Part shown: one piece after another, positions 61,341 to 63,269 of the stretch
Layout: each line of letters begins with the position of its first letter
How positions within the stretch are numbered: the stretch's first letter is position 1
Assembly: GCA_017886375.1 (NCBI GenBank)
Contig: JAGGNB010000081.1
Coordinates: forward strand, 18,764 to 82,763
DNA: 64,000 nucleotides
Source of the DNA: Octadecabacter sp.
Lineage (GTDB): Bacteria; Pseudomonadota; Alphaproteobacteria; Rhodobacterales; Rhodobacteraceae
Direction of reading: 5' to 3'
Translations under genes and position numbers: made by a program
Notes under the pieces: generated by a model
Databases searched by the model: none
What the model was told of the DNA's origin: nothing
Seen by the model: the letters and a program-made list of their open reading frames with translations, nothing else

Positions 61341-62234
61341 ATGGCCAACCGCTGGAACAACACATTCACCCGAGCAGATATCACGCCGGAACCACTTTGG
61401 CTGAATCGCCGTGCGGTCCTCGCGGGGATGGCAGGCGCGGGTGCTTTGGGCGGGGCCGTTGCTGCACAAGAAGCGCTTGTGCCGAACACATGGGAAGAAA
61501 TCACCACCTACAATAACTTCTACGAATTCGGCACGGGTAAAACTGATCCGTCCGACAATGCTGGTGATATGGTCACCGATCCGTGGGAAATTACAATTGA
61601 CGGTTTGGTGGACAATCCGGGCACCTTTGCGCTGTCCGATCTCATCGCAGACATGACGATGGAGGAACGCCTGTATCGTTTCCGCTGCGTCGAAGCATGG
61701 TCCATGGTCATTCCTTGGAATGGGTTTGAACTGGCCGATTTACTGGAAAAGGCAGGTGTGCAATCTGGCGCCACACACGTGGCGTTCGAAACGGCCGTGT
61801 TGCCCGATGTCATGCCCGGCGTGCGCCGCAACGTGATCGACTTCCCTTATGTCGAAGGCCTGCGTCTGGACGAAGCGATGCATCCGCTGACCATTATGGC
61901 GACTGGCATTTATGATCGCCCGCTCGCCAACCAAAGCGGCGCACCGATCCGTTTGGTCGTGCCATGGAAATATGGCTTCAAGTCGATCAAATCTATCGTG
62001 CGCATCACGCTGACTGATGAACAGCCCGCGACCACTTGGAACAAGATCAGTGACCGCGAATATGGCTTCTATAGTAATGTGAACCCCGAAGTGGATCACC
62101 CCCGCTGGAGCCAAGCATCCGAACGCATGATCGGTGGCGGTTTGTTCTCGTCGCGCCAGGACACGCTGATGTTCAACGGTTATCCCGAAGTCGCCAGTCT
62201 TTACGACGGCATGGATTTGACGACAAATTACTGA
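61341..62234 (+). CDS. msrP: Protein-methionine-sulfoxide reductase catalytic subunit (Mo)
   Basis: Tat signal NRRAVL; [33 protein letters not shown]. Confidence 0.97.
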
Positions 62235-62446
62235 TGGGACGGTTTTTTGCGTTCTTGGGTGGTTTGGGGGCCAGCGTCGGTTTGCTCTGTTGCTTTACGG
62301 GGTTACTGCCGTTTGTTTTAACGTCGGTTGGCGCAGGCAGTCTGATTGCGACTCTCTATCGTGACAGTGTCCTATTCCCTTTCGTTGGTGCGTCTCTCAT
62401 CCTTATGGGGATTGGTCTCTGGATGATGCGGCGGAATAGATCATGA
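62234..62446 (+). CDS. MerF-like small metal-transport membrane protein
   Basis: GLLCCFTGLL vicinal Cys in TM1; second TM D.VLFP...; resembles MerF ALCCFTP...DYVLLP. Confidence 0.7.
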   Translation: MGRFFAFLGGLGASVGLLCCFTGLLPFVLTSVGAGSLIATLYRDSVLFPFVGASLILMGIGLWMMRRNRS

Positions 62447-62652
62447 ACGACGTTATCTTGCAGTCCACTTTGACATGCCCCAGCTGCGCGGCGTCGCACG
62501 TAGAAACGATGCCGACTGACGCCTGCCAATACTTTTACAAATGCACGGGGTGCGGGACAGTGCTGCGCCCCAAGACAGGGGATTGTTGTGTCTATTGTTC
62601 CTACGGAACGGTTGCCTGTCCGCCAATCCAGCTAGGGAATGAGTGCTGCTGA
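62443..62652 (+). CDS. GDCCVxC-domain cysteine-rich protein
   Basis: STLTCPSC...MPTDACQYFYKCTGC...LRPKTGDCCVYCSYGTVACPPIQ...CC. Confidence 0.9.
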   Translation: MNDVILQSTLTCPSCAASHVETMPTDACQYFYKCTGCGTVLRPKTGDCCVYCSYGTVACPPIQLGNECC

Positions 62653-63269
62653 TGATCGACACCATCAACACCGTTGCACGCAAAATCCCGACTTGGTTGG
62701 TCTATCTCCTTTATGTTCTGCCAATCCCCTATTTCTTCTATTCCGCCCAAACTGGCGGCATGGGGGTCGAACCGATCAACGCCCTTGAACGTGAAATGGG
62801 TCAGATCACATTGCAGCTCATCATTATCGGTCTCGCGATTACGCCGCTGCGCAAATACCTTGGGCTCAACCTGCTGAAATTCCGCCGCGCAATTGGCGTG
62901 CTGGCTTTTAGCTATGTGGTGGTACACCTCGGCATCTGGGTTCTACTGGATATGAATCTGCGGTGGGGGCAAATGTGGGCCGACATCTGGAAACGCCCCT
63001 ATATTACCATCGGTATGGTGGCGTTCCTCATGATGATCCCCTTGGCAATCACATCCAACAACCTGTCCGTGCGAAAACTAGGCGGGGCGACGTGGCGCAA
63101 ACTGCACAAACTTATGTACTTGATCGCCCCTCTTGGGGCCGTTCACTTTATAATGGTGCAAAAAGTGTGGGAGGTTGAACCGATGCTGTACCTTGTGGTC
63201 ATCCTCGCGCTGCTGGCGACACGCTACAAGCCGTCACGAAAAACCGCTGGCGCGCGCGCGGGCGGCTGA
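62652..63269 (+). CDS. msrQ: Protein-methionine-sulfoxide reductase heme subunit
   Basis: LAITPLR, RRAIG...YVVVH, KRPYITIG, LAITSN, WRKLHKL.Y....GAVH; ATG 62652. Confidence 0.95.
   Translation: MIDTINTVARKIPTWLVYLLYVLPIPYFFYSAQTGGMGVEPINALEREMGQITLQLIIIGLAITPLRKYLGLNLLKFRRAIGVLAFSYVVVHLGIWVLLDMNLRWGQMWADIWKRPYITIGMVAFLMMIPLAITSNNLSVRKLGGATWRKLHKLMYLIAPLGAVHFIMVQKVWEVEPMLYLVVILALLATRYKPSRKTAGARAGG

Follow-up and report, generated by a model that had tools for sequence, protein, structure and literature searches.

A GDCCVxC-domain gene between msrP and msrQ in Rhodobacteraceae, accompanied in Octadecabacter by a MerF-like gene

In the stretch of Octadecabacter sp. DNA analysed here (64,000 nucleotides, hereafter the window), msrP and msrQ are separated by two small genes, one encoding a MerF-like membrane hairpin and the other a Cys-rich protein of the GDCCVxC family. 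The GDCCVxC gene has the same position in 16 of 171 msrP-bearing genomes of Rhodobacteraceae. Our best explanation, which we regard as about equally likely to prove right or wrong, is that a soft-metal acceptor, here together with its importer, has been shifted from MerR control to the stress promoter of msrPQ. A sequence-only reading of the locus had proposed an undescribed four-gene system. The pairing of MerF and GDCCVxC as such is not undescribed: GDCCVxC is already a family in NCBIfam, and Mer-type transporters are its regular companions. What is new is only the placement of GDCCVxC inside msrPQ.

The four genes and their products

The four genes form one string of overlapping open reading frames (Table 1). 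The overlaps are TGATG (62232-62236) between msrP and the MerF-like gene, ATGA (62443-62446) between the two cassette genes, and TGATG (62650-62654) before msrQ if the latter starts at ATG 62652, which is probably its start. The gene order and overlaps are thus as the sequence-only reading had given them, and its premise that msrP and msrQ are normally adjacent holds as well: the two genes usually adjoin each other, and in about 30 of 40 plain operons from Rhodobacteraceae the gap between them is -7 to +30 nt. A terminator scan found none inside the four-gene string. The cassette has a GC content of 54%, compared with 54-55% in the flanking genes, and so bears no compositional sign of recent transfer. 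A 6-nt repeat, CTGATG, is present at both cassette ends (62231-62236 and 62649-62654); since the two copies are the stop/start overlaps with a C in front, they are uninformative on the mechanism of insertion.

Table 1. Features of the msrP-msrQ locus (positions in the window)
Feature	Position	Strand	Basis
Promoter-like bipartite motif, GTTACA-N16-GTGA	61246..61271	+	some 95 nt before the start of msrP
msrP	61341..62234	+	NF003767, 429 bits (cutoff 207); PF00174, E 2e-33
MerF-like two-TM hairpin gene, 70 aa	62234..62446	+	NF033565, only 30.4 bits (cutoff 50)
GDCCVxC-domain protein gene, 69 aa, 11 Cys	62443..62652	+	NF041374, 100 bits (cutoff 40)
msrQ	62643 (GTG) or 62652 (ATG)..63269	+	NF003831, 155 bits (cutoff 130); PF01794 (ferric-reductase-like TM domain), E 1.7e-18

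The outer genes are identified at the equivalog level. MsrP is a periplasmic molybdoenzyme that acts as a methionine-sulfoxide reductase, and MsrQ is its haem-binding membrane electron donor. The N-terminus of MsrP appears, by eye, to be of the Tat type, with a twin-arginine motif (NRRAVLAG) followed by a hydrophobic stretch. MsrQ has no Cys residues, here and in nearly all linked operons, and a trans-membrane thiol relay through MsrQ, which had been offered as one interpretation of the locus, is ruled out for this reason.

The MerF-like protein has a vicinal Cys pair in its first transmembrane helix (LLCCFT, residues 17-22) and a basic C-terminus that ends in WMMRRNRS directly after the second helix. 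Although it misses the curated MerF cutoff and has no Pfam match (PF11431 for MerF), the profile of its subfamily (A2) aligns with solved MerF (2M67/2MOZ) at E 2.8e-13, positions 4-68 on 6-68, covering both TM helices. Among 21 aligned members of the subfamily, C20 is invariant and C19 is kept in at least 90%, while a C-terminal Cys pair is present in none; the lack of MerF's C-terminal CC that had been remarked on for this protein (C-terminus RRNRS) is shared by all 21. Its orthologues in Yoonia sp. (61% identity), Roseovarius litorisediminis (48%) and two further genomes (G043, G077) occupy the corresponding site. The Yoonia copy has RC in place of CC.

The GDCCVxC protein has no signal peptide and is cytoplasmic. 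Translation of the reading frame bears out the Cys motifs described previously, namely CPSC, CTGC, GDCCVYC at residues 46-52 and a terminal CC, to which C28 and C59 (in CPP) are to be added. All 11 Cys are near-invariant among 41 family copies and 76 wider homologues. The CPSC and CTGC pairs suggest an N-terminal zinc ribbon. An AF2 model (pLDDT 79) predicts hairpins at residues 6-11 and 18-23; its best matches in a fold search are zinc ribbons, at weak scores (Z 2-3.4). Foldseek returned nothing for the model at E<=0.001 and no solved homologue was found, which should not be taken as evidence of a new fold. The copy in the window is of the all-Cys form rather than the selenocysteine form. In a relative (L265), the place of the second Cys of GDCC is taken by an in-frame TGA, which marks that residue as the reactive one. 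The family is very large: it comprises at least 3,016 clusters when grouped at 90% identity, its fused forms number at least 629, and it ranges from Bacteroidota to Proteobacteria. A literature search found no paper using the name GDCCVxC and none containing both MsrQ and MerF; because no family member has been studied experimentally, metal binding and specificity are deduced from context.

Distribution of the embedded arrangement

The family was sampled with 201 genomes, of which 171 carry msrP; Rhodobacteraceae is used here sensu GTDB and corresponds to the marine Alphaproteobacteria placed by NCBI in Paracoccaceae and Roseobacteraceae. Beyond the 16 embedded operons of this sample, the arrangement is found in Flavimaricola marinus, Yoonia sp., Roseovarius litorisediminis and one further genome (G579). 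Outside Rhodobacteraceae, no embedding was found among about 64 alphaproteobacterial genomes carrying GDCCVxC. The arrangement is not due to chance, because it recurs in many genera. Both cassette genes are under purifying selection, with dN/dS of about 0.09 for GDCCVxC, comparable to host genes, and about 0.28 for the MerF-like gene, for which dS is saturated. The possibility that the cassette is a decaying insert of a single strain, which the sequence-only reading had singled out as a check on its proposal, is thereby set aside.

The MerF-like gene is an optional component. It is present in 3 of the 16 embedded operons and in those of Yoonia sp. and R. litorisediminis, or 5 of about 20 overall. 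In the other 13 of the 16, GDCCVxC is all that has been added to msrPQ, which leaves MsrQ as the operon's only membrane protein. For example, R. litorisediminis CECT 8287 has all four genes, while F. marinus has GDCCVxC only. In 10 genomes of the GDCCVxC-only type, a genome-wide search for MerF-like and MerT genes found neither. It follows that GDCCVxC has to function in the absence of a dedicated importer as well, and that import does not generally belong to the embedded form. These observations do not support an obligate four-gene system.

On the MsrP tree, the embedded operons have a scattered, patchy distribution that requires 13 changes. The MsrP tree was used because the tree of GDCCVxC itself (69 columns) is unresolved and does not separate one origin from several. 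Embedded GDCCVxC copies have long branches, and their Cys residues are intact in most lineages. Two of the embedded copies appear to be degraded: a motif Cys and the terminal CC are missing from L071, and the terminal CC from L051. The msrP-msrQ junction also holds other inserts, namely a P450 gene (L198), a gene for a membrane protein of about 130 residues (L171), an antisense membrane ORF (L161) and a secreted ORF of 127 residues (L071). In a genome of the same genus (G195), msrP and msrQ are separated by a non-coding spacer of about 390-431 nt. No decayed cassette was found in this spacer, where the best tblastn match has E 0.28, DNA matches are only 8-10 nt long and GC is similar, and where a pseudogene would be unrecognisable at such divergence.

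Contexts of GDCCVxC elsewhere and regulation within msrPQ

In Bacteroidota, Gammaproteobacteria and Alphaproteobacteria, GDCCVxC lies directly downstream of genes for MerT, MerC, MerT-HMA or MerF-like proteins, often overlapping them, and in these non-embedded modules a MerR gene is commonly divergent. The association extends to gene fusion. Among the best 120 of at least 629 longer homologues, 98 consist of an N-terminal, CC-bearing TM part fused to GDCCVxC; the Pfam labels in the same 120 are MerT (31), MerC (16), MerB (3), ArsD (2) and MerF (1), and an MsrQ or MsrP domain occurs in none. In one fusion (P0165), a MerF hairpin continues straight into GDCCVxC. Such natural fusions support a functional pairing of the two proteins and the earlier suggestion that GDCCVxC supplies the CC pair missing from the MerF-like protein.

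Mercuric reductase does not belong to this context. A motif scan of about 196 GDCCVxC loci found no MerA; a disulfide reductase encoded beside one locus (L226) was rejected as a candidate, being of the lipoamide-dehydrogenase type without a C-terminal CC. In the source genome, which is 90% complete, no MerA, MerT or Hg-type MerR scored above cutoff. The cassette is thus independent of merA, as had been anticipated, and in its embedded form it also lacks merR and merT. A MerR-family gene is present within the locus for 14 of 25 non-embedded GDCCVxC copies, compared with none of the 16 embedded copies, and no MerR gene was found within 5 kb of the embedded loci. Embedded copies would therefore rely on the msrP promoter for their expression.

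The region upstream of msrP contains a conserved motif (GTTACA-N15/16-CGTGA), located at -83 to -105, that matches a strict pattern in 9 of 19 linked operons (shuffled mean 0.2, maximum 2). Looser variants are visible in most of the other linked operons and are present in plain operons too; genome-wide, the loose motif is no commoner than its control. The motif is ECF-sigma-like, with the architecture of the Caulobacter sigmaF site GTAACC-N16-CGAA, which has been described with its regulon (PMC3511200), and from its sequence it may function as a promoter. A search of the 90%-complete genome revealed no homologue of NrsF (PF06532), and a sigma-70 scan upstream of msrP gave nothing relevant. Published work describes responses of msrP homologues to HOCl, copper, singlet oxygen, Cr and Cd, with that of R. 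sphaeroides responding to singlet-oxygen conditions (10.1101/243626, PMC9302797, PMC3511200).

Possible functions of the embedded gene

According to our best explanation, GDCCVxC would be a small cytoplasmic, Cys-rich acceptor of thiophilic metal(loid)s such as Hg, Cu, Ag, Cd or As, built on a zinc ribbon. Its usual site would be the cytoplasmic face of Mer-type importers that have a vicinal Cys pair in TM1 (MerT, MerC, MerF and MerT-HMA), in reductase-less modules under MerR control. In Rhodobacteraceae, one copy would have been placed between msrP and msrQ with loss of MerR control, so that the stress promoter of msrP would drive its transcription and its translation would be coupled to that of msrPQ. 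In the window, the importer half would have come too: the Cys pair in TM1 of the MerF-like protein would pass a periplasmic metal ion to GDCCVxC, whose Cys cluster and terminal CC would stand in for the C-terminal pair of MerF and hold the metal in the cytoplasm. Metal binding, the metal concerned, the direction of its transfer and the inducing signal are accordingly put forward here as presumptive. The link to MsrPQ would lie in common regulation: faced with the same stress, both parts would protect the envelope, with no physical partnership between them. Import of a toxic metal without a reductase is counter-intuitive, and this counts against the explanation, as do the RC of the Yoonia copy, the 10 genomes in which no MerF-like or MerT gene was found, and the results for NrsF and for the loose motif genome-wide.

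There are several known systems for comparison. The reductase-less mer-type modules (MerR with MerT, MerC, MerF or MerT-HMA and GDCCVxC) have the same GDCCVxC protein, at 60-75% identity, likewise coupled behind a membrane protein with a TM1 Cys pair and likewise without MerA. Unlike those modules, the pair in the window has no MerR and no mer operator and lies inside msrPQ behind the msrP promoter, and most embedded operons have GDCCVxC without a transporter. MerF of pMER327/419 (2M67, 2MOZ, 2LJ2, 2H3O, 1WAZ) shares the two-helix hairpin and the CCFTP-type Cys pair of TM1, with homology over residues 4-68, but the MerF-like protein stops after TM2, has no C-terminal Cys pair and does not belong to a merR/merA operon. 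The MsrPQ (YedYZ) operons of E. coli, R. sphaeroides, Azospira and Caulobacter also consist of equivalog msrP and msrQ and are stress-inducible in the species studied; the two extra coupled genes between msrP and msrQ distinguish the present operon. NmerA, the HMA domain of MerA, and the ArsD-type metallochaperones are small cytoplasmic Cys modules that either receive a soft metal(loid) from a transporter or pass it on to an enzyme. The resemblance of GDCCVxC to them is a functional analogy only, suggested by its fusions to MerT, MerC, MerF, MerB and ArsD: its predicted fold, a zinc ribbon followed by a Cys-rich tail, is unrelated and has no significant structural match, it has 11 Cys rather than 2-3, and there is no downstream enzyme here. 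Finally, the msrPQ accessory of Azospira is reported to be the periplasmic, Met-rich peptide MrpX (PMC4436054), whereas GDCCVxC is cytoplasmic and Cys-rich.

The placement need not be adaptive. The msrP-msrQ junction could be a permissive, transcribed landing site in which GDCCVxC, with or without the MerF-like gene, is a neutral or opportunistic passenger that continues its ordinary work on metals and has no adaptive connection with the conditions under which msrPQ is induced. The unrelated inserts and the spacer at the same junction, the patchy presence on the MsrP tree, the degraded-looking copies and the lack of co-adaptation in linked MsrP and MsrQ are all consistent with such a passenger. 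However, GDCCVxC is by far the commonest insert, with 16 cases in 171 genomes against single cases of all others; all 11 Cys are kept in most lineages across long divergence; and copies that are always without MerR, and hence presumably dependent on the msrP promoter, would be hard to maintain if timing were irrelevant. We consider a mere passenger unlikely, though not to be dismissed lightly.

The other alternatives give GDCCVxC a role in redox chemistry or in MsrPQ itself. It might be a redox partner of MsrQ, either a rubredoxin-like Fe(Cys)4 protein or a thiol/selenol protein that feeds the cytoplasmic side of MsrQ, as Fre does in E. coli. Its CxxC...CxxC knuckles are of the rubredoxin/zinc-ribbon type, selenocysteine, which some variants have, is typical of redox proteins, and in 13 of 16 embedded operons GDCCVxC has no membrane protein beside it other than MsrQ, which is known to need a cytoplasmic electron source (PMC12525009). 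This role is nevertheless very improbable: about 90% of msrPQ operons in Rhodobacteraceae are without GDCCVxC, fusions to MsrQ or MsrP are absent from the best 120 of at least 629 longer homologues, where Mer transporters, MerB and ArsD are common fusion partners, signature residues are missing from linked MsrQ, and the contexts outside Rhodobacteraceae are metal-resistance genes rather than redox enzymes. Equally doubtful is a sacrificial thiol buffer, or a zinc-thiolate redox switch, for HOCl or singlet oxygen without any metal trafficking. The density of 11 Cys in 69 residues, predicted co-expression with a repair system for oxidative damage, the 10 genomes without a MerF-like or MerT importer and the singlet-oxygen response of R. 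sphaeroides msrP would suit such a buffer, but it leaves unexplained the near-universal pairing or fusion with Mer transporters, MerB and ArsD, the MerR control elsewhere and the MerF-like importer here. A genuine MsrPQ accessory, which would shield the molybdopterin cofactor and the maturation of MsrP in the cytoplasm from thiophilic metals, or feed electrons to MsrQ, goes beyond co-regulation to direct dependence. Such dependence would explain why GDCCVxC has repeatedly been kept precisely at the msrP-msrQ junction, in most cases with no Mer-type importer in the genome, and we think it improbable, if slightly less so than the two preceding roles. A mechanistic tie between GDCCVxC and MsrP or MsrQ is not supported, since there are no fusions, no signature residues were found in either protein of the linked operons, and the junction also takes unrelated inserts. 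Taken as a whole, the sequence-only interpretation is partly borne out.

For annotation, the locus is a warning against taking a 'MerF' or mercury-type label within msrPQ as the sign of a mercury-resistance operon. For the GDCCVxC family, the msrPQ-embedded copies are a natural experiment in which the protein has been freed from MerR, and mostly from a Mer-type importer, and wired to an operon for envelope oxidative repair. Cultured and tractable strains such as R. litorisediminis CECT 8287 and F. marinus may thus reveal what GDCCVxC binds, whether it needs a transporter, and which stress is sensed by the msrPQ promoter of Rhodobacteraceae.

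The four-gene locus

The sequence-only description of this locus proved right in every detail. The four genes lie on one strand and overlap by 1, 4 and 1 nt. The cassette formed by the two small genes has the GC content of the adjoining genes. Against the MerF HMM the MerF-like protein reaches 30 bits, under the cutoff of 50; a profile of the 69-aa subfamily to which it belongs matches solved MerF structures over both helices (E 2.8e-13), and the protein ends at the exact point where the C-terminal cysteine-pair tail of MerF starts.

Features of the msrPQ locus and its flanks in the window
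Feature	Position	Strand	Description
PF01645 gene	59685-61163	+	membrane-anchored FMN 'glutamate synthase domain' family protein, E 1e-85; directly 5' of msrP
82-nt element	61164-61245		GC-rich; between PF01645 gene and msrP promoter motif
msrP	first gene of 61341-63269	+	NF003767, 429 bits
MerF-like	second gene	+	70 aa, two TM, LLCCFT in first helix
GDCCVxC	third gene	+	69 aa, 11 Cys; NF041374 'GDCCVxC domain-containing (seleno)protein', 100 bits (cutoff 40)
msrQ	fourth gene	+	NF003831, 155 bits
MFS transporter gene	63282-64000	+	3' of msrQ; split over two frames near 63.77-63.81 kb

Three flanking features deserve mention. Of 21 related msrPQ loci, at least 9, plain ones among them, have the PF01645 gene in the same place (~70% identity); its product could be an electron-input partner of MsrQ, or the position could reflect mere conserved synteny. 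The 82-nt element is a dispersed repeat that looks like a REP/MITE-type element, with at least 22 further copies in the genome (75-96% identity) and copies also in the same-genus sister genome G195. In the MFS gene, frame 1 matches residues 4-158 of the Flavimaricola orthologue and frame 2 residues 178-241; the gene is either a pseudogene with a frameshift or misassembled in this draft genome.

Recurrence and conservation

The arrangement is confirmed as real, recurrent and selected. Of 201 genomes of the family, one per genus, 171 have msrP and 36 have GDCCVxC; 16 have the latter directly between msrP and msrQ, and three of these (the window, G043 and G077) have the MerF-like gene as well. 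Two further four-gene operons occur in an uncultured Yoonia sp. and Roseovarius litorisediminis CECT 8287, and two further GDCCVxC-only ones in Flavimaricola marinus and genome G579; the embedding is thus not the property of a single strain. The plain operons of the family have the two msr genes adjoining or overlapping. Of 401 Alphaproteobacteria sampled across the class, 67 have GDCCVxC and none outside the family has it embedded (the sole case other than the window belongs to it), and among 80 species of several phyla embedding was found only in the Rhodobacterales operons of Yoonia sp. and R. litorisediminis. We found no paper that mentions GDCCVxC within msrPQ.

On the MsrP tree, embedded operons are scattered (13 changes, at least five forced by well-supported branches) and cluster no more than shuffled labels, so the insert has been repeatedly gained or lost. 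In G195 the corresponding position holds a ~431-nt spacer with no recognisable gene. Many draft assemblies in the family sample break off on the msrQ side, ~1 kb from msrP, which suggests that an assembly-breaking repeat (an rRNA/tRNA locus or mobile element) commonly follows msrQ.

Conservation is nearly complete for all 11 cysteines and for most of the 58-residue domain, both in 41 copies from the family and in 76 wider homologues. The dN/dS comparison proposed earlier, made against the other four-gene operons, gave about 0.09 for GDCCVxC, 0.10-0.15 for MsrP, about 0.28 for the MerF-like protein and 0.28 for MsrQ, values that are rough because dS is saturated. Some copies look degraded: one embedded GDCCVxC (L071) has lost a motif cysteine and the terminal CC, and another (L051) the terminal CC. 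In the Yoonia MerF-like copy RC stands in place of CC, and an in-frame stop interrupts a MerF-like copy elsewhere.

Usual partners of GDCCVxC

Across phyla, GDCCVxC lies directly 3' of, and often overlaps, a gene for a membrane protein with a vicinal cysteine pair in TM1: a MerT-HMA fusion in Bacteroidota, MerC in Gammaproteobacteria, and MerT, or MerT-like plus MerF-like proteins, in Alphaproteobacteria. A divergent MerR is common at these loci, and loci that lack an adjacent transporter of this kind still have metal-related genes nearby (P-type ATPases, MerR, HMA, SBF). MerA is absent beside all of ~196 GDCCVxC loci and from the window's entire genome, which bears out the proposed independence from merA. 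At one locus (L265:1480-1668; G357:C160), with a MerR-family gene just 3', a homologue reads TGA in frame in place of the codon for the motif's second cysteine (GDC-TGA-VFC), and likely has selenocysteine there. The AF2 model of GDCCVxC (pLDDT 79) looks like a zinc ribbon with a Cys-rich tail, and a fold search with it gave no significant structural relative.

Gene fusions give the strongest evidence on the usual partners. The domain occurs in at least 629 longer proteins; of the best 120 of these, 98 have an N-terminal CC-bearing TM part, and Pfam labels 31 as MerT, 16 as MerC, 3 as MerB, 2 as ArsD and 1 as MerF. No MsrQ or MsrP domain occurs among these 120. The protein P0165 has a MerF hairpin that runs into the GDCCVxC domain without a break. 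In others (P0130, P0240, P0153, P0218) GDCCVxC is N-terminally fused to the alkylmercury lyase MerB (~321-324 aa) or to ArsD (~192-205 aa), which adds cytoplasmic proteins that process metal(loid)s to the transporters among its partners.

Four-protein machine or, more probably, capture

The sequence-only reading offered a four-gene system or a trans-membrane thiol relay. A relay through MsrQ is excluded because MsrQ has no cysteine in the window and zero or one in other linked operons. No residue of MsrQ or MsrP marks linked from plain operons beyond a permutation null, and overall we found no sign in the sequences of a mechanistic tie. The msrP-msrQ junction also tolerates other, unrelated inserts, as in this family it can contain a cytochrome P450 gene (L198), an ORF for a multi-TM protein of ~130 aa (L171), an antisense membrane ORF (L161) or an ORF for a secreted 127-aa protein with a signal peptide (L071). 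GDCCVxC is by far the commonest insert, and is kept intact over long divergence.

What embedding probably changes is the regulation of GDCCVxC. Of 25 non-embedded family loci, 14 have a MerR-family gene within 0.3-1.3 kb of GDCCVxC; none of the 16 embedded ones does. A bipartite motif, GTTACA-N15/16-CGTGA, is conserved 83-105 nt before the msrP start codon; its strict pattern occurs in 9 of 19 linked operons (shuffled mean 0.2), and looser variants in most of the remainder and in plain operons as well. Its architecture resembles that of the Caulobacter sigmaF site, GTAACC-N16-CGAA. The sigmaF regulon, of which the MsrP homologue is a member, responds to both chromate and cadmium (PMC3511200). 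A search of the window's genome (90% complete) revealed no NrsF homologue. For msrP homologues elsewhere, one study describes a response to HOCl and copper (PMC9302797) and another a response to singlet-oxygen conditions (10.1101/243626).

What stands of the earlier proposal, given the natural fusions, is GDCCVxC as stand-in for the cysteine pair that the MerF-like protein lacks: the two are best read as each forming one half of a unit that imports a thiophilic metal and holds it, in which GDCCVxC would replace MerF's cytoplasmic pair. The embedded GDCCVxC can apparently, for the most part, do without an importer; for the two kinds of importer gene searched for, MerF-like and MerT, 10 of 13 GDCCVxC-only msrPQ genomes have none detectable anywhere, which makes the window the fuller and less common version. 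The connection to msrPQ is best read as capture and not as a four-protein machine. We suggest that in one bacterial family a stress-induced envelope-repair operon may have captured this import-and-hold unit, more often as GDCCVxC alone.
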